Origin: a virus
Lineage: Duplodnaviria > Heunggongvirae > Uroviricota > Caudoviricetes
DNA length: 9,840 nucleotides
Strand: one strand, 5' to 3'
IMG/VR virus record: IMGVR_UViG_2693429623_000020
Part shown: in pieces, positions 1,884-8,813 of the stretch
Numbering within the stretch: the first letter of the stretch is position 1
Layout of the letters: every line of letters starts with the position of its first letter
The notes under the pieces: model-generated
Seen by the model: only the letters and a program-made list of their open reading frames with translations
What the model was told of the DNA's origin: nothing
The model's database searches: none
Program-made: the position numbers and the translations under genes

Positions 1884-1913
1884 ATAAAACAAAGGCGACC
1901 GGGGGCGGTCGCC
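1884..1913 (-). terminator. Rho-independent terminator for the minus-strand operon
   Basis: Hairpin GGCGACCG-GGGG-CGGTCGCC (1894-1913); on the minus strand it is followed by TTTGTTTTAT. No U-run on the + strand. Confidence 0.55.
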
Positions 1914-1980: not shown

Positions 1981-2160
1981 TCAGTCAGATTTGGTTCGTT
2001 CCAAGGTTTGCAACGAGAGCTTTTTCCTGTGCTCTTTAAGGAATTTCTCAAGAGCAAACGAACAAGGTGCGAATCTTTCTGATTCATGTTCATGCGCTAT
2101 ATTTTTGCGTCGTCTCTTACGAGTTGGTGATGGTGTTTTGGTTGATTCTGTGTCGCTCAT
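1981..2160 (-). CDS. Small basic hypothetical protein (59 aa), second gene of the divergent operon
   Basis: Minus-strand ORF below the ORF-track size cutoff, hand-translated as MSDTESTKTPSPTRKRRRKNIAHEHESERFAPCSFALEKFLKEHRKKLSLQTLERTKSD. AGGA lies 8-11 nt upstream of the ATG at 2160. It sits between the RHH gene and the minus-strand terminator. Confidence 0.4.
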   Translation of the reverse strand: MSDTESTKTPSPTRKRRRKNIAHEHESERFAPCSFALEKFLKEHRKKLSLQTLERTKSD

Positions 2161-2217
2161 GGTGCTGTCCTGTAAAGCAATGCGCCTGCGTTCCTCAAAC
2201 TATGGCGCTGATAGTGG

Positions 2218-2523
2218 CTATTCCTGCTCTTTGACCTTGCGTCGCTGGAGTTCTTCACGCGCGACGGTGACGAGTTGCCCGATCTCCTCGGCGGCTTTGA
2301 CTCCGATTTTTTCCACCTGCGCTAGGGCATCGAGCGAAGAAACCAGGAGGTTTTCTCCGCTTCCTTCTGCCTGGCGGCGGGCGATTTCACCGCGCATGGC
2401 GGTTACTATGAATCCGGCGTTGCTTTCACCGTCCAGTTTTACGGATTCCATGCCTTCAATAACATCATGCGGGATCCGAGCTGTCAGTGATTGTGATTTT
2501 GCGTTTTTTGAACCTGTAGCCAT
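2218..2523 (-). CDS. Ribbon-helix-helix (CopG/Arc/MetJ-like) putative transcriptional regulator, 101 aa
   Basis: N-terminal segment SLTARIPHDVIEGMESVKLDGESNAGFIVTAMRGEIARRQ has the strand-helix-helix pattern of RHH DNA-binding domains, followed by a charged helical tail. Start placed at the ATG at 2523 (GAGAGGA RBS 7 nt upstream) instead of the ORF-track start 2538. Divergent from the rightward genes. Confidence 0.6.
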   Translation of the reverse strand: MATGSKNAKSQSLTARIPHDVIEGMESVKLDGESNAGFIVTAMRGEIARRQAEGSGENLLVSSLDALAQVEKIGVKAAEEIGQLVTVAREELQRRKVKEQE

Positions 2524-2544
2524 CTGTAATCCTCTCAATGAAAG

Positions 2545-2621
2545 TGTAAGACAATATACACATAAAAAGTCTTACATAAAAGCATTGACATGTAAGCCAC
2601 CTATAAATAAAGTTACTTACA
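2545..2621. promoter_or_regulatory. Divergent promoter/operator region with four TGTAAG half-sites in two inverted pairs
   Basis: TGTAAG at 2545-2550 and 2591-2596; CTTACA at 2571-2576 and 2616-2621. TTGACA (2585-2590) and a -10-like TAAAGT (2608-2613) at 17-bp spacing lie between them. Sits between the divergent RHH gene and the rightward Icd-like gene. Confidence 0.45.
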
Positions 2622-2719
2622 CCTTGTTAATGCAAGGTGCAGAAACGACGAAACCCCGCACTGTAGGAGCAGTAACGGGGCTTCTAACCACCAACGATAG
2701 CAAGATTATCGAGGCAGCT

Positions 2720-2923
2720 ATGAGAAATCATACCATACACCCGCAAGGGCGGGACTCGTACAACCTGAATAAATACATCTGGCGTTTTATCGCCCTGAGC
2801 ACCGCACAACCGCGCGTGATTCACATCGTGGCCACCAGCGAACAGGAAGCACGCCAGCAATCCCCGGCTGGCTGCGTGATGGTATTCGCCGCCCGTATTC
2901 GTCAGGGGGTGTGCCATGCCTGA
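2720..2923 (+). CDS. Small protein resembling the host cell division inhibitor Icd-like family (67 aa)
   Basis: Only the 3' end of the 348-aa ORF-track entry is taken as coding, starting at the ATG at 2720 (GAGG 5 nt upstream). The pattern YIWRFIAL...ATSEQEARQQ....VMVFAARI resembles Icd-like small proteins of enterobacterial satellite prophages as I recall them; not verified by search. Confidence 0.45.
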   Translation: MRNHTIHPQGRDSYNLNKYIWRFIALSTAQPRVIHIVATSEQEARQQSPAGCVMVFAARIRQGVCHA

Positions 2924-3236
2924 TATGTCAAATTACCAGTACCTGATTAATCCGCATTTTAACTGTGAGCATGATATTGCTAAAAAGGTTTATTCCGCTG
3001 CGGATGGGGCTACTGACAATATATCAATGGCTGTTGCGTCAATTGGTAGCCTGATGTGGCATGCGTCAGAAAATGAGGACTATGACGAAAAGGCCATGCG
3101 CATTGATATGGGTAATATCGGTTTGTTACTGGCAATGCTTGGACATTTTGATATTTCGTTACGGTGCACCATTGAAAATGCCACAGATGCATTAAATGCT
3201 ATAAAGAAAGCGAATACTGATTCAAATCGGGGATAA
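2916..3236 (+). CDS. Hypothetical protein (106 aa)
   Basis: ORF with AGGGGG RBS; overlaps the preceding stop by 8 nt (translational coupling). No recognisable motif. Confidence 0.55.
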   Translation: MPDMSNYQYLINPHFNCEHDIAKKVYSAADGATDNISMAVASIGSLMWHASENEDYDEKAMRIDMGNIGLLLAMLGHFDISLRCTIENATDALNAIKKANTDSNRG

Positions 3237-3242
3237 ATAATC

Positions 3243-3542
3243 ATGAGAACGTATTTATCTGGCTTGACTGCCAGCGGTTATGCACACCCCCAAATTATCC
3301 CCGGCGCTATTTATCTTGATAAGAACGGTAACAGAGTAACGGTAAAAGAACTGATGTTTGACCGTGTGTATTTTATTCGTGATGGCTATTCATTTCATAG
3401 TTCGCTGAACGTGGAGATCTTTATTAGCAGATTCAGGCGGGAAATCCCGCTTTCCAGAAATAACCATGTGTCACGTGTGGATGTGGATAAAAAACTACAG
3501 GAACTGAAAAACATGATTGCCGCGTGGAGAGAGCAGAAATGA
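3243..3542 (+). CDS. Hypothetical protein (99 aa), translationally coupled to the replication gene
   Basis: ORF whose stop overlaps the start of the next gene (ATGA at 3539-3542). No recognisable motif. Confidence 0.55.
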   Translation: MRTYLSGLTASGYAHPQIIPGAIYLDKNGNRVTVKELMFDRVYFIRDGYSFHSSLNVEIFISRFRREIPLSRNNHVSRVDVDKKLQELKNMIAAWREQK

Positions 3543-5356
3543 AAAAAGCGCCAAATTTAAAACACCAGCCGCGTGACAAAATGACGGAAGTCATCATTTT
3601 TGCGGGTAGTGATGCGTGGGCACATGCGAAACAGTGGCAGGAACAGGACGGGCGACTGGCTGGCGATAACGTGCCACCTGTCTGGCTTGGAGAGCAACAA
3701 CTTGTCGAACTGGACAACCTGCAAATCGTACCGGACGGACGCTATCGCGTGCGTCTCTATCAGGCGGGGTTATTGCGTCCGGGGCTTGTTAATACCATCG
3801 GGCAGAAACTGGCAGAGGCAGGTGTCAGGGATGCTGATTATTACCCTGAAGGAATGCACAGCCAGAAACGGGAGAACTGGCGTGAATATCTGGAACGTGA
3901 ACGGGCAGAGCTGGCGGAAAAGAAAAAGGTAGTTGAACTGCCTGTAAAGAAAAAAGAGCGGGTAAAAGACGATAACGCTTCATCACTGGCGCTTAACCAG
4001 ATGGGAGCAAGTCAACGCGGCGAAGTTCTCCTGGCACATTATGGCGGTGAACTGGCGATTCATGCTGACTCTGACACTGTTCACCATTACAACGGCATTG
4101 TATGGGAGCCAGTACAGGATAAAGAATTACAGCGAGCTATGGCGCAGATTTTCATTGATGCGGAGATCAGCTATTCGCAGAACGCCATTAAATCGGCGGT
4201 CGATACCATGAAGTTAAGTTTGCCTGTTATGGGGAATACAGCCCGTAACCTGATTGGATTCAGTAACGGGGTATTTGATACCAGAACAGGTAATTTTCGG
4301 GAGCATAACAAAAACGACTGGTTGTTAATTGCCAGTGAATTACCTTTCAGCCCACCAGCAGAGGGGGAAACGCTGGCAACACATGCGCCGAATTTCTGGA
4401 AGTGGTTACGCCGTTCGGTGGCTGAGAATGACCGCAAGGCGGATCGCGTACTGGCTGCATTATTCATGGTGCTGGCGAACCGGTACGACTGGCAGTTATT
4501 CATTGAGGTAACAGGTCCAGGGGGAAGTGGTAAAAGCGTGATGGCGGAGATTTGCACCATGCTGGCGGGTAAGGCCAACACAGTATCGGCAAGCATGAAG
4601 GCGCTGGAAGATGCAAGGGAACGCGCGTTAGTGGTTGGCTTTTCGCTGATTATCATGCCGGATATGACCCGCTACGCTGGTGATGGGGCAGGAATTAAGG
4701 CCATTACAGGCGGTGACAAGGTGGCAATTGACCCGAAACACAAAGCCCCCTACTCAACGCGTATTCCGGCAGTAGTGCTGGCGGTTAACAATAACGCCAT
4801 GTCATTCAGTGACCGCAGCGGGGGGATCTCACGTCGTCGGGTGATATTCAATTTTTCGGAAGTTGTACCGGAGAACGAACGCGATTCAATGCTGGCGGAA
4901 AAAATAGAAGGTGAGCTGGCGGTAGTGATTCGTCATCTGCTTACACGGTTTGCTGACCAGGACGAAGCCAGACGCCTTTTATATGAGCAGCAGAAATCAG
5001 AAGAAGCACTCGCGATAAAGCGTGAAGGTGATTCGCTGGTGGACTTCTGCGGCTATCTCATGGCGTCGGTAATGTGTGATGGCCTGTTAGTGGGTAATGC
5101 TGAAATTGTGCCATTCAGCCCGCGCAGGTATCTCTATCATGCCTATCTGGCTTATATGAAGGCACATGGGTTTGGTAAACCTGTAACACTGACGCGCTTC
5201 GGTAAAGATATGCCGGGGGCAATGGCGGAATATGGCAGGGAGTATATGAAACGGAAAACGAAGCACGGTTTGCGTTCAAACGTGACACTGACGGAGGAAT
5301 CAGAAGACTGGATGCCATCATGTGTATCGGTCACTAATGACGATAGCAAAAATTAA
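3539..5356 (+). CDS. Replication initiator, P4-alpha-like C-terminal region (D5_N-like plus SF3 helicase P-loop NTPase), 605 aa
   Basis: Walker A motif EVTGPGGSGKS; the surrounding NGVFD..TG...EH and FW.WL.R context is typical of the phage/plasmid primase P4-family C-terminal domain. Start set at the ATG at 3539 (ATGA overlap, GGAGAG RBS) rather than the track start 3524. A canonical primase domain is not obvious in the N-terminal 250 aa. Confidence 0.85.
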   Translation: MKKAPNLKHQPRDKMTEVIIFAGSDAWAHAKQWQEQDGRLAGDNVPPVWLGEQQLVELDNLQIVPDGRYRVRLYQAGLLRPGLVNTIGQKLAEAGVRDADYYPEGMHSQKRENWREYLERERAELAEKKKVVELPVKKKERVKDDNASSLALNQMGASQRGEVLLAHYGGELAIHADSDTVHHYNGIVWEPVQDKELQRAMAQIFIDAEISYSQNAIKSAVDTMKLSLPVMGNTARNLIGFSNGVFDTRTGNFREHNKNDWLLIASELPFSPPAEGETLATHAPNFWKWLRRSVAENDRKADRVLAALFMVLANRYDWQLFIEVTGPGGSGKSVMAEICTMLAGKANTVSASMKALEDARERALVVGFSLIIMPDMTRYAGDGAGIKAITGGDKVAIDPKHKAPYSTRIPAVVLAVNNNAMSFSDRSGGISRRRVIFNFSEVVPENERDSMLAEKIEGELAVVIRHLLTRFADQDEARRLLYEQQKSEEALAIKREGDSLVDFCGYLMASVMCDGLLVGNAEIVPFSPRRYLYHAYLAYMKAHGFGKPVTLTRFGKDMPGAMAEYGREYMKRKTKHGLRSNVTLTEESEDWMPSCVSVTNDDSKN

Positions 5357-5369
5357 ACTTATGGAATAA

Positions 5370-5592
5370 CTGTTCACCACTGTTCACCCTGTCATAAATA
5401 TCTTTTGTATCAGTATGTTATAGGGTGAACAGTTATTTATGAACTGTTCACCAAACTATTCACTGTTCACCTTTTTGATTGTTTATTGAGCTTCAAGGGT
5501 GAACAGTGGTGAACAGTTGGTGAATAGTTTTTGTGAAACTGTTCACCCCTTAACATTATGAATTAAAAGATAAAATATCAAAAGGTGAACAG
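5370..5592. repeat. Replication origin: at least nine 9-bp iterons CTGTTCACC / GGTGAACAG in both orientations in an AT-rich background
   Basis: CTGTTCACC at 5370, 5380, 5444, 5463, 5539; GGTGAACAG at 5424, 5498, 5508, 5584; degenerate copies near 5454 and 5518. The core TGTTCACC is the type I iteron bound by P4 alpha (from memory). Located directly after the alpha-like gene. Confidence 0.8.
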
Positions 5593-6693: not shown

Positions 6694-6900
6694 GTGAGTT
6701 GTATTAATGACCTGAACACGGGCGATATCAGGGGTGGTTCCGTTCATCTGGATGCGCAGACCGTTATGCGCCTTAAGCAGTACAGGATCGACCATATAAA
6801 TCATCATCCTGACAAACCATTACCAGGTGTGGCGCAGATTGTCAGACATGCCGTAAACACCTGGCTTAATCAGAATGGTTTTGCATCGGTGGGGGAATAA
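6694..6900 (+). CDS. Small RHH-like putative DNA-binding protein (68 aa), first gene of the capsid operon
   Basis: GTG start with AGAGGAAG RBS. SVHLDAQTVMRLKQY...VAQIVRHAVNTWLNQ fits a strand-helix-helix pattern. Its stop overlaps the start of the capsid gene (TAATG). Confidence 0.5.
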   Translation: MSCINDLNTGDIRGGSVHLDAQTVMRLKQYRIDHINHHPDKPLPGVAQIVRHAVNTWLNQNGFASVGE

Positions 6901-8813
6901 TGAATCGCTGGTACACCATTAAGGCGGCGGATGTTCGTGGAGCGGCGGATATATCTATCTATGAGGAGATTGGCGGCTTCGGTGTTACTGCAAAGCAGTT
7001 CGCGGAAGACCTGAAAGCCCTTGGCGATGTTTCACATATCAATCTGAGGATCCATTCACCAGGTGGTGATGTGTTTGAAGGCATCGCCATCTATAACCTG
7101 CTACGGAATCATCCGGCAGACATTACGGTTTATATCGATGGTGTTGCGGCTTCAATGGCTTCGGTGGTCGCAATGGCTGGCGATCGTGTAGTGATGCCGG
7201 AGAACGCCATGATGATGATCCATAAACCGTGGGGGATCTCTGGCGGAAATGCTGGCGATATGCGTGATTATGCTGATTTGCTGGATAAGGTGGAAACCGT
7301 GTTAATCCCTGCTTATGCCAGAAAAACGGGCAAATCAGCACAGGAAATTACCGCCATGCTGGAGGATGAAACCTGGATGGATGGGAAAGAATGCCTTAAG
7401 CACGGTTTTGCTGATGAATTGTTGCCATCCGTCAGAGCAATGGCGCGAATTGAATCGAAACGCACAGGAGATTTTTTACATATGCCGGAAACCATTAAAG
7501 GAATGATTACACCGCCACAGGGAGCGGCAAATATTGCTGGTAATGAACAGAAGCGCATCAATGGAATAAGTGAAGTGTTTAGCCTGTTCGGCAGTCGTTA
7601 CGACGGGATCAAAATGGCGTGTCTGGAAGATGCATCATGTACACCGGAAATGGCCCGTGAAAAGCTGTTGAACGAGCTGGGGCGCGAGTCCACGCCATCC
7701 AATAAAAATACCCCGCCTCATATCTATGCTGGAAACGGAAACATAACAGGTGATGCAATTCGTCAGGGGCTTTATTCCCGTCTTGGGTATGAACGGCCTG
7801 AACGAGGCAACCCTTACGCGATGATGAGTCTTTTTGAAATGGCCCAGGCATCACTGGTTGATCGTGGTATCACTGTGAGCGGTTTTATTAATCGCTCGCA
7901 GGTTGTTAATGCGGCTTTTACACACAGCAGCAGTGATTTTTCTCATATTCTGGCTGGTGGGGCTGAAAAATCTGTACTGAAAGGCTGGCAGGACAGCGGC
8001 GAAACGTTCCAGAAATGGACGCGTACCGGTTCGCTTTCAAACTTTCATGAAGCAAAGCGCGTTGGTCTGAATGGTTTTTCAAAGCTGGATAAAGTACCGG
8101 AAGGTGCGGAATATAAATACATCACCACCAGCGATAAAGGTGTACCTATTGCGCTGGCCACGTACGGGAATATATTTTCCGTTACCCGTCAGGCCATTAT
8201 CAACGATGACCTGACCCAGTTAACTACAATCCCCATGGCGATGGGACGCGCAGCTGCCAGAACAGTTGGCAATCTGGTTTATCTCCTGTTAACCAGCAAC
8301 GGCAAGTTTACGGATGGTAAAGCGTTATTCCATGCCGATCATAAAAATCTTATTGCGAAGGATATGGACATGGAGGGGCTTAACGAAGCCCGTAAGCTGA
8401 TGCGCCTCCAGGAAGACGCTAACGGCGATTCGCTGAATATTACCCCTGCATTTGTCCTGGTCCCCGCCGCGCTGGAGTCTGCCGCACATCGCGCCATTCT
8501 GTCATCGTCATCACTCTTTCCGGTTGATGGCGTGGGCACTATCAATCAGAACCCCGGCATCATTAACGTGGTGAAAGATATGGCGGAGGTAATCGTTGAG
8601 CCACGTCTTGATAAAGCCAATAACAAGGAGTGGTATGTGGCAGCGGCGAAGGGTATGGACACGATAGAGGTCGCTTATCTTGATGGTATTGATACGCCAT
8701 ATCTTGAGGAGCAGGAGGGCTTTACTGTTGATGGCGTCGCCTGGAAGGTGCGCATAGATGCAGGTGTAGCGGCCCTCGACTATCGCGGATTACTGAAATC
8801 GAGTGGAGCATGA
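6900..8813 (+). CDS. ClpP-like (S14) prohead protease fused to an HK97-fold major capsid protein (637 aa)
   Basis: N-terminal about 190 aa contain DGVAASMASVVAMAG and MMIHKPWGISGG, matching the ClpP active-site Ser and His motifs (GQAASMGAF / MIHQPLGG). The C-terminal 350 aa (..TIEVAYLDG..FTVDGVAWKVRIDAGVAALDYRG) resemble HK97-like major capsid proteins. GGGGGAA RBS. Confidence 0.85.
   Translation: MNRWYTIKAADVRGAADISIYEEIGGFGVTAKQFAEDLKALGDVSHINLRIHSPGGDVFEGIAIYNLLRNHPADITVYIDGVAASMASVVAMAGDRVVMPENAMMMIHKPWGISGGNAGDMRDYADLLDKVETVLIPAYARKTGKSAQEITAMLEDETWMDGKECLKHGFADELLPSVRAMARIESKRTGDFLHMPETIKGMITPPQGAANIAGNEQKRINGISEVFSLFGSRYDGIKMACLEDASCTPEMAREKLLNELGRESTPSNKNTPPHIYAGNGNITGDAIRQGLYSRLGYERPERGNPYAMMSLFEMAQASLVDRGITVSGFINRSQVVNAAFTHSSSDFSHILAGGAEKSVLKGWQDSGETFQKWTRTGSLSNFHEAKRVGLNGFSKLDKVPEGAEYKYITTSDKGVPIALATYGNIFSVTRQAIINDDLTQLTTIPMAMGRAAARTVGNLVYLLLTSNGKFTDGKALFHADHKNLIAKDMDMEGLNEARKLMRLQEDANGDSLNITPAFVLVPAALESAAHRAILSSSSLFPVDGVGTINQNPGIINVVKDMAEVIVEPRLDKANNKEWYVAAAKGMDTIEVAYLDGIDTPYLEEQEGFTVDGVAWKVRIDAGVAALDYRGLLKSSGA

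Follow-up and report, generated by a model that had tools for sequence, protein, structure and literature searches.

A ribbon-helix-helix gene divergent from the replication block and nested in an alpA-coupled reading frame: a candidate immunity and commitment switch of a Gram-negative phage-inducible chromosomal island

The control region of a putative phage-inducible chromosomal island (PICI) was analysed in a 9,840-nt stretch of viral DNA (i.e. the window; IMG/VR record IMGVR_UViG_2693429623_000020, Caudoviricetes). On the plus strand, a gene for an AlpA-type regulator (alpA, 1657-1866; Pfam Phage_AlpA, E = 4.8e-16 on the open reading frame (ORF) at 1570-1866) precedes icd-like (2720-2923; NCBIfam phage_ICD_like, E = 5.3e-20), the first gene of a rightward block that includes the primase. 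A 69-aa AlpA product identical to that of the window is annotated by the Prokaryotic Genome Annotation Pipeline (PGAP) in a related locus (L026; L numbers designate loci throughout). Between alpA and icd-like, the minus strand carries a candidate ribbon-helix-helix (RHH) repressor gene of the YlcI/YnfO_N family (2218-2523), followed downstream by a 59-aa ORF (1981-2160), and a promoter/operator region of 196 nt separates the RHH gene from icd-like. The two minus-strand genes and the promoter/operator region are overlapped on the plus strand by orfX, a frame of 348 codons (1877-2923). Comparisons were made across 32 loci, consisting of 24 from species-representative genomes and eight from Escherichia coli, and the 150 nt upstream of the RHH start were aligned for 30 loci.

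The RHH gene encodes a protein of 101 aa from an ATG at 2523, which is preceded by a ribosome-binding site (GAGAGGA); a program-made ORF list begins the gene instead at a TTG at 2538. The protein scored 71.4 bits against the NCBIfam family YlcI_YnfO_N (NF041551; cut-off 30, E = 4.7e-20, residues 9-50) and its homologues receive the same YlcI/YnfO family name from PGAP. In an AlphaFold2 model of the monomer, residues ~10-17 form an extended strand, which is succeeded by two helices (19-28 and 35-54) and a further, long one (59-100); the mean predicted local distance difference test (pLDDT) value was 80.6, and this structure contains the beta-alpha-alpha fold of ~45 residues that characterizes RHH proteins. 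An hhalign comparison paired residues 9-53 with residues 6-43 of Arc (E = 0.0097, probability 4%), in a register that places S12, T14 and R16 opposite Q9, N11 and R13, the base-contacting residues of Arc. Sequence similarity was significant neither for Arc nor for Mnt (E = 0.14 for the latter, probability below 5%). As judged from the modelled fold, the minus-strand product is an RHH protein, and the family score and predicted structure bear out the minus-strand RHH gene proposed in a first-pass annotation of this DNA.

Homologues of this protein span Escherichia, Salmonella, Citrobacter, Klebsiella, Enterobacter, Yersinia, Serratia, Erwinia, Pectobacterium, Xenorhabdus, Photorhabdus and Edwardsiella; a tblastn search of the phage collection with the RHH protein produced no match. 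The C-terminal half is well conserved among homologues and residues 9-17 sort into discrete classes. A conserved C-terminal domain, LDALAQVEKIGVKAAEEI (window 2218-2400, RHH residues ~60-87), weakly resembled the helix-hairpin-helix of Hef (profile E = 0.0055; one HHH_2 match). This assignment was dropped as AlphaFold2 modelled one continuous helix with a pLDDT of ~95.

The hexamer TGTAAG is present in six copies on the two strands of the window, four of which are located upstream of the RHH gene at 2545(+), 2571(-), 2591(+) and 2616(-). Four copies within 80 bp were not obtained in any of 3000 dinucleotide-preserving shuffles, the maximum being three copies in 3 shuffles. These copies are arranged as two inverted pairs, TGTAAGAC-N16-GTCTTACA and TGTAAG-N19-CTTACA, around a TTGACA -35 element, exactly as had been described previously, and the shuffles support a non-random origin for the cluster. 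Overlooked in that description was that the half-sites exceed 6 nt and are approximately (G/A)TGTAAG(A/C/T).

Two predicted promoters are interleaved with these sites. The rightward promoter, P_R (2585-2613, plus strand), consists of TTGACA (2585-2590), a 17-nt spacer and TAAAGT (2608-2613), agreeing with the consensus at 10 of 12 positions. Putative operator site 2 (ATGTAAGCC, 2590-2598) falls within the P_R spacer and abuts the -35, and putative site 1 (TACTTACACC, the reverse complement of GGTGTAAGTA, 2614-2623) lies at or just past the -10/+1. For the leftward (RHH) promoter, a putative -10 (TATATT, 2553-2558, minus strand) corresponds to a TATA(A/C/T)T block that is conserved in the 30-locus alignment; putative site 4 (GTGTAAGAC, 2544-2552) is just downstream of this -10 and putative site 3 (GTCTTACAT, the reverse complement of ATGTAAGAC, 2568-2576) is in the spacer/-35 region. 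Sites 2 and 1 hence flank the P_R -10, and sites 3 and 4 flank the leftward -10-like block. Equivalents of P_R were found at the homologous place in the CFT073 island (TTGACG-18-TATAGT) and in a Xenorhabdus locus (L003; TTGACG-17-TAACAT).

Further elements are present on the icd-like side of the operators. A small hairpin (CACCTTG / CAAGGTG, 2620-2639, plus strand) overlaps site 1, contains an in-frame ATG at 2630 and recurs in many loci, though not all. A perfect DnaA-box-like sequence, TTATCCACA, is found directly 3' of site 1 in other loci (L012, L016, L013, L004, L021, L007 and L009) and not in the window, which, like some other loci, has the CACCTTG/CAAGGTG hairpin in its place. The P_R leader contains a GC-rich stem-loop (2654-2680, plus strand, within orfX) followed by a conserved CTTCTAACCACC at 2682-2693. 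The stem-loop was present in every locus examined, RNAalifold predicting seven pairs of which three exhibit compensatory changes, and a T-rich tail follows it on the minus strand. This structure may be an attenuator that is melted by translation, a leftward terminator or a protein-binding RNA.

Alterations in the operator cores were found to parallel alterations in the RHH protein. In the 30-locus alignment, the P_R -35, the TATA(A/C/T)T block, a T-rich stretch and the leader are conserved, and four short segments at fixed positions each carry a class-specific 9-nt core that mostly begins with GTGT. Site cores and beta-strand residues vary jointly, RHH residues 11-15 being those that co-vary with the cores, and define at least 12 classes among ~30 related islands from many Enterobacterales. 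The strand SQSLTAR (the window and Enterobacter soli) is accompanied by GTGTAAG, SQLTTVR by GTGTGTTTC, SQMTTVR by GTGTATTTC, S(K/R)QISIR by GTGTGATT, SQ(L/I/V)KN(I/V)R by GTGTGTATT or GTGTGCAT, SQQIVSR by GGTGGCAT, SQQLNAR by GGTGCGAT and SQALKAR (EcCICFT073, the prototype island) by GGTGTGGCCCAC. When site-4 cores were used as probes for 17 beta-strand classes, the mean summed identity was 21.3 at the own locus as compared to 18.6 for other classes, and 0 of 20000 label permutations reached the observed mean.

Pairs of loci that share a class across genera exhibited higher identity in the cores than in the remaining region (0.97 versus 0.77, 0.94 versus 0.64 and 0.89 versus 0.64), whereas the relationship was reversed for pairs of different classes (0.46 versus 0.54 and 0.36 versus 0.56). 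Individual islands provide natural exchanges of these components. L001 and L031 encode an identical AlpA (WP_000953274.1) and differ in both RHH protein and sites; the window and L026 have an identical AlpA and the same Icd N-terminus but differ in RHH class and in sites (TGTAAG versus GTGTTTC); and L026 and L028 have the RHH protein (WP_000179579.1) and sites in common and differ in AlpA and integrase. Across these sequences, the site cores track the RHH class and not the AlpA or Icd type. As the cores are repeated within each locus, occupy fixed positions relative to both promoters and co-vary with the beta-strand, the comparison argues strongly for binding of the four site cores by the RHH protein. 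The co-variation also lends indirect support to the binding mode of RHH proteins, in which the antiparallel beta-ribbon of a dimer enters the major groove at repeated sites.

The second minus-strand ORF (1981-2160) encodes a basic, helical protein of 59 aa with an AGGA ribosome-binding site, and is in the same frame as the RHH gene at a distance of 57 nt. A hairpin resembling an intrinsic terminator (1894-1913, minus strand; GGCGACCGCCCCCGGTCGCC, followed by a T run in the tail TTTGTTTTAT) ends the leftward operon; its stem has 8 bp, including seven GC pairs, and no T run follows the hairpin on the plus strand. Matches to the 59-aa ORF were restricted to 29 protein clusters, all named ones being from Escherichia, with only 10 representatives among 1.84 billion proteins. 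No conserved ORF was found 3' of the RHH gene in Xenorhabdus, Photorhabdus, Serratia, Yersinia, Erwinia, Klebsiella or Pectobacterium. Searches of Pfam and NCBIfam with the 59-aa ORF and a PADLOC run on four proteins yielded no match and no toxin family, and the one PHROG match was to phrog_21027 (unknown function). AlphaFold2 predicted two helices with a mean pLDDT of 69. Indels in this ORF are in frame and third-position changes are in excess; the latter says nothing about the strand because the plus-strand frame has the same third positions. Both ORFs and the minus-strand terminator of the previously proposed operon are thus present in the window, but the pairing is confined to Escherichia: at most, the sequences indicate a two-gene operon restricted to this genus and an RHH gene that stands alone in others.

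The first-pass annotation had also raised a pair of RHH antitoxin and small toxin. In this alternative, the region would be a type II toxin-antitoxin module, with the RHH protein as an autoregulating antitoxin, the basic 59-aa protein as toxin and the repeats as the operator of this module only. The distribution of the 59-aa ORF argues against this alternative, as a partner is not conserved outside of Escherichia and has no toxin-family match, and a protein of 59 aa with low-confidence helices is far smaller than known type II toxins. Additionally, two of the four sites are placed on the divergent P_R, where a toxin-antitoxin operator would have no need of them, and the RHH module is always in the slot between alpA and icd-like/primase. 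A toxin-antitoxin function is therefore considered very improbable.

The plus strand of the same region was then considered. orfX starts with an ATG located 10 nt past the alpA stop codon, is preceded by a GGGGAG Shine-Dalgarno sequence and is coupled to alpA; in phase with icd-like, it covers in antisense the terminator hairpin, both the 59-aa ORF and the RHH gene, and all 196 nt of the promoter/operator region. Stop codons in the three plus-strand frames numbered 123, 1 and 180 over the RHH antisense of the 32 loci, and 163, 18 and 155 over a 185-nt intergenic region. Ahead of the icd ATG, 17 of 27 loci have an in-phase open stretch of 600 nt or more. For most loci, the first ATG of orfX was between -13 and +14 nt from the stop codon of the upstream gene, which is either alpA or a longer ORF between alpA and orfX (annotated as an AntA/AntB antirepressor in L030). 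For a stop codon to arise on the plus strand in this phase, the RHH strand has to read NNY-TAx or NNT-CAx, so that tyrosine should be nearly absent from the RHH protein if such stops are selected against; in keeping with this expectation, tyrosine accounts for 28 of 12144 residues in the RHH homologues. The 281 residues of orfX upstream of icd in the window matched no protein family, only the C-terminal Icd-like part being matched, and the translation upstream of icd changes with operator class. Selection appears, from these patterns, to act on an open, translated frame rather than on a particular protein.

Database annotations of this region are inconsistent because the plus-strand frame is conserved open. 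In RefSeq, PGAP has called a partial 'Icd-like' pseudogene antisense to a YlcI gene in one genome and an Icd-like start within the promoter region in others (L027 2385-2864; L030 3189-3554; L031 3055-3339). A similar case is the 16.5-kb 'Escherichia phage vB_KppS-Ant' (L034; LR881103.1), which was deposited as a phage from an induced prophage or lysate. Its genes represent satellite content and encode an integrase, a regulator of the AlpA type, a long ORF whose end is Icd-like, a primase and a capsid precursor. An unannotated 67-aa YlcI-like RHH ORF is present at 3191-3394, antisense inside an annotated plus-strand ORF, with GGTG(T/C)ACCCCCAC repeats upstream, which is the same design as in the window. 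A tblastn search of phages with the Icd-like protein detected a single record, comprising satellite-like DNA.

An open plus-strand frame raises the alternative that the minus-strand ORFs are silent, that the real gene is the long plus-strand ORF and that the repeats are structural or serve as binding sites for another factor, such as AlpA, a replication protein or the product of orfX. The plus-strand frame is clearly selected to stay open, depositors and the field annotate this strand ('ORF3', the gene downstream of alpA), and the sharing of third codon positions means that codon statistics cannot separate the strands. Against this, the RHH family score is far over the curated cut-off for a family built on the independent E. 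coli K-12 genes ylcI and ynfO, the RHH fold is confidently predicted for an ORF with a good ribosome-binding site, and the plus-strand translation is without a family match save for its Icd-like C-terminus. The repeats, moreover, follow the RHH beta-strand class and not the AlpA or Icd type. A silent minus strand is accordingly regarded as highly unlikely.

Expression data for this strand are available from a relative of the window. Reporter expression of 'ORF3' of EcCICFT073 was shown to be AlpA-dependent by Fillol-Salom et al. 2018 (PMC6092414). Mapping of the primers in the supplement of that paper placed the 'ORF3' fusion at an in-frame Met of the long CFT073 frame (L001 3568-4854), ~480 nt beyond alpA and a short distance ahead of the 3' end of the RHH operon. 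As the fusion maps inside the long frame, AlpA-dependent transcription enters the region antisense to the RHH operon. One other primer from this supplement, rep-3cB, had no exact match in L001 and was not used for any claim. The same study found AlpA to be necessary for induction of EcCICFT073 and its overexpression to be sufficient, and described the occurrence of a global repressor in Gram-negative PICIs as 'unclear' and the difference from Gram-positive islands as 'a mystery' (PMC6092414). A 2025 study of capsid-forming PICIs (cf-PICIs) referred to the gene downstream of alpA as variable and of unknown function. Literature searches returned nothing relevant on the function of YlcI, YnfO or DUF3950 or on an RHH regulator in PICIs, and the papers searched hold no description of the repressor proposed here.

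We interpret the region 1877-2923 as the immunity and commitment switch of the island, in which the RHH protein would act as an autoregulated repressor and induction would occur by AlpA-driven, translated read-through, and assign a probability of roughly 55% to this interpretation. The predicted N-terminal beta-strand of the RHH protein (residues ~10-17, SQSLTARI) would read the 9-nt cores (G/A)TGTAAGNN, with the invariant Arg16 probably contacting the near-constant GTG and the long C-terminal helix probably linking dimers on separate sites. Some short-form relatives (59-64 aa) that lack the C-terminal helix have a different site layout, which may reflect bridging of sites by this helix. From the geometry of sites and promoters, operator occupancy would shut off icd-like, DUF4222 and primase and simultaneously limit RHH synthesis, such that the island would be kept silent without a helper phage. 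Comparison of the loci shows that beta-strand and cores have diversified together while the scaffold was conserved, producing no fewer than 12 classes of specificity, as would be expected of heteroimmunity groups.

Induction in this scheme would not involve a classical anti-repressor. Transcription activated by AlpA at the alpA promoter would run on rightwards, and the transcript would be translated as the long alpA-coupled frame across the repressor operon and operators, bringing both RNA polymerase and ribosomes to icd-like and the genes for replication. As in the case of eta of phage P4, the movement of ribosomes along the frame would guard against premature termination, for which the leader stem-loop (2654-2680) is a possible place, and convergent transcription would lower repressor output, resulting in release of P_R. 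Read-through driven by AlpA and repression by the RHH protein probably form two layers of a single circuit. A circuit of this type would account for two findings in the literature, namely that AlpA is both necessary and sufficient for induction despite the presence of a repressor, and that this region varies between otherwise identical islands. The 'master repressor switch' of the first-pass annotation survives in the sense that the sites and their co-variation are best read as pointing to an RHH repressor of the rightward block from icd to primase, while 'master' goes further than these data and is an inference. The contrast drawn there with AlpA-only control falls away; the switch does not compete with AlpA but is nested in an alpA-coupled frame that the annotation had missed.

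Several observations weigh against the interpretation of the region as an RHH-controlled switch. For the protein, Pfam gave no match with the window RHH sequence, PF07704 matched 25 of 33 RHH homologues at sub-threshold levels only (best E = 0.00098) and a Foldseek search with the RHH model returned no match. For the operators, a per-locus repeat test (best 8-mer, up to one mismatch, mononucleotide shuffles) was weak in the AT-rich 113-nt region; on the window, the 8-mer test did not pick the operators, and anchored site extraction and class permutation were used instead. Physical linkage partly confounds the co-variation between cores and N-terminal codons in these sequences, although linkage alone is insufficient as an explanation because one core recurs three or four times per locus. 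Centre-to-centre spacings of the sites are 25-26, 20 and 25 bp; RHH proteins usually bind adjacent sites approximately one helical turn apart. A consensus promoter scan did not call the leftward promoter in the window, CFT073 or L003, the -35 being weak. Finally, EcCICFT073 can be induced by nothing more than overexpression of AlpA (PMC6092414), so that a repressor, if one truly exists, does not suffice to keep the island off against AlpA.

Some of these points also favour a different role for the RHH protein, in which it binds the sites as a Cro-like or late modulator, or as a roadblock that tunes AlpA read-through, and silence of the island reflects a lack of AlpA. Induction of EcCICFT073 requires AlpA and can be brought about by AlpA overexpression (PMC6092414), the leftward promoter is apparently a weak one and the sites are in the path of the alpA-coupled frame. 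P_R, however, has a near-consensus -35 and a good spacer (10/12) and would fire constitutively unless repressed, the operators flank both -10 elements in the layout of a default-on, autoregulated repressor, and immunity repressors typically diversify into classes of specificity. A role other than maintenance repression is consequently judged unlikely.

Further points against the switch as proposed concern orfX and hence its induction step. Ten of the 18 in-frame intergenic stops were contributed by two loci, L004 and L007, in which orfX is lost and no closely coupled gene is found upstream, L007 adjoining a transposase-like ORF; both frames look decayed. In about a third of loci the frame ends 4-39 nt short of icd, a gap that is compatible with termination and re-initiation. 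orfX could also encode a functional protein rather than being just a translated conduit. The most developed form of this alternative is a multi-domain protein of the Bro/Eta type with an Ant-like N-terminus in some islands, an Icd/Ash-like C-terminus and a dual-coded middle. The CFT073 frame of 428 aa has an N-terminal part with weak matches to anti-repressor Ant PHROGs (E = 6e-5 to 6e-4), the match of the C-terminal part to phrog_6196 rises from 144.7 to 168.9 bits on extension by the 24 residues that precede the annotated icd start, and Eta of P4 is a real protein (PMC10111431). Conversely, no family was matched by the window residues that precede icd, the operator-crossing part differs entirely from class to class, and those loci in which the frame stops just before icd and restarts are a better fit to translational coupling than to an obligatory fusion. 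A multi-domain orfX protein is viewed as a somewhat doubtful proposition, and would rival only the read-through step of induction, being compatible with the repressor, operator and class components of the proposed switch.

More tentatively, and at odds somewhat poorer than even, we propose in general terms that Gram-negative PICIs and cf-PICIs carry a nested antisense RHH immunity repressor that has diversified into at least a dozen heteroimmunity groups and from which islands are induced by translated convergent read-through. If correct, repressor-operator cassettes would decide which islands coexist and which cross-silence one another, and Gram-negative islands would possess a protein-based counterpart of the RNA immunity of P4, with translated read-through serving to bypass and extinguish the repressor. 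A candidate would thereby be available for a repressor of a kind that these islands were thought to lack, one that annotation of the plus strand by the field had hidden. The variable region after alpA would gain candidate content (i.e. repressor, operators and specificity code), with its variability being explained by immunity groups. Such a switch would bear on the prediction of satellite responses to signals and on the engineering of PICI-based delivery vehicles, and would show, in a natural setting, how an overlapping translated frame constrains a repressor gene together with its operators.

The remainder of the window is consistent with this setting. The plus-strand gene order is tyrosine integrase (1-1239; Pfam), AlpA regulator, Icd-like, DUF4222 (3243-3542), D5-type primase (D5/DUF5906, 3524-5356), single-stranded DNA-binding protein, ClpP-protease/major-capsid fusion (6900-8813) and DUF1441, with an additional ORF between icd-like and the DUF4222 gene (2916-3236, plus strand). 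Integrase, alpA and primase are in one direction and accompanied by a capsid gene, and EcCICFT073 has the same layout. On sequence grounds, the window matches a Gram-negative PICI, and of the capsid-forming type because the element carries its own capsid gene. The segment 1870-2730 had a DNA match in 1016 of 5426 complete E. coli genomes, 257 of which carry at least 80% of the region. Downstream of the primase, at 5441-5530, repeated GTTCACC / GGTGAACAG-type units in direct and inverted orientations came to light through a spurious microRNA match; these repeats are probably the iterons of the replication origin of the island. A 68-aa ORF (6694-6900) without a Pfam match abuts the protease-capsid fusion gene on its upstream side. 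An Rfam scan of the whole window at E values of up to 1 detected no C4 or isrK RNA, with just two chance matches elsewhere.

Comparisons with known systems were made for both the protein and the circuit. The closest named relatives of the RHH protein are YlcI of prophage DLP12 and YnfO of prophage Qin (DUF3950) in E. coli K-12, small mobile-element proteins that belong to the same NCBIfam N-terminal family and exhibit 22% identity. YlcI differs in its location, which is beside nohD in a lambdoid prophage rather than in a regulatory slot flanked by alpA and primase. The K-12 ylcI gene (L032 6252-6840, DLP12) is divergent from nohD with a 388-bp gap, so that a founding member of the family is also divergently arranged.

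Stl proteins from the pathogenicity islands of Staphylococcus aureus (SaPIs) are helix-turn-helix repressors that are inactivated by binding of helper proteins and that have a divergent str partner. Like the window, the Stl/Rpr systems of Gram-positive islands belong to PICI satellites and have a repressor gene that is divergent from the excision/replication block, with presumed silencing until a helper phage intervenes (PMC6092414). In both the window and EcCICFT073, int and alpA are followed by the RHH gene on the minus strand and then by icd-like, DUF4222 and primase on the plus strand. The window differs from Stl/Rpr in the fold of its repressor, which is RHH without any match to a helix-turn-helix family, in lacking a Str-like partner, in having an induction run by AlpA and in the absence of an anti-repressor from the model. 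The likeness to a Stl/Str-type switch suggested by the first-pass annotation accordingly extends to a functional resemblance and a divergent repressor, but not to the fold or to the partner gene.

The immI region of phage P22 provides a nearer parallel for the repressor. Mnt is an RHH repressor with a C-terminal helical oligomerization domain, is encoded divergently from the operon that it represses and binds operators that overlap both promoters. The window shares with immI (i.e. Mnt, O_mnt, P_ant/P_mnt and Arc) a divergent gene for a candidate RHH repressor, and has a beta-strand in the register of Arc. The immI region has one compact operator as compared to the four dispersed, non-palindromic 9-nt cores of the window, and its target is an anti-repressor operon, whereas the proposed targets in the window are replication genes and the switch resides inside an antisense frame.

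For the nested frame, the parallel is the immunity region of satellite P4 (P_LL - vis - eta/kil, internal P_LE and CI RNA), in which an alpA-type gene is likewise followed by a coupled long ORF. In P4, coupling links eta to its alpA homologue, both the immunity element and a promoter lie within eta, and translation from the upstream late promoter prevents termination (PMC10111431). The long ORFs of P4 and, as proposed here, the window both hold an internal early promoter and an immunity determinant and lead to a primase operon; in the window, an alpA-coupled long ORF runs into the primase operon and P_R is the predicted internal promoter. The Icd-like protein of the window (5.6e-24) and the C-terminal part of the old 'cI ORF' of P4 (8168-8584, eta/kil region; 7.5e-21) both match phrog_1743; direct comparison of the Icd-like protein with the 'cI ORF' by BLASTP was not significant, so the link is through this common PHROG. 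P4 differs in that its immunity factor is a cis-encoded CI RNA acting by transcription termination, whereas the window has a candidate protein repressor on the opposite strand and four putative operators over the internal promoter. The closest designs are the Mnt/Pant switch of P22 and the vis-eta immunity region of P4, and the sequence of the window suggests a combination of the two, namely an RHH immunity switch set within nested translation of the P4 type.

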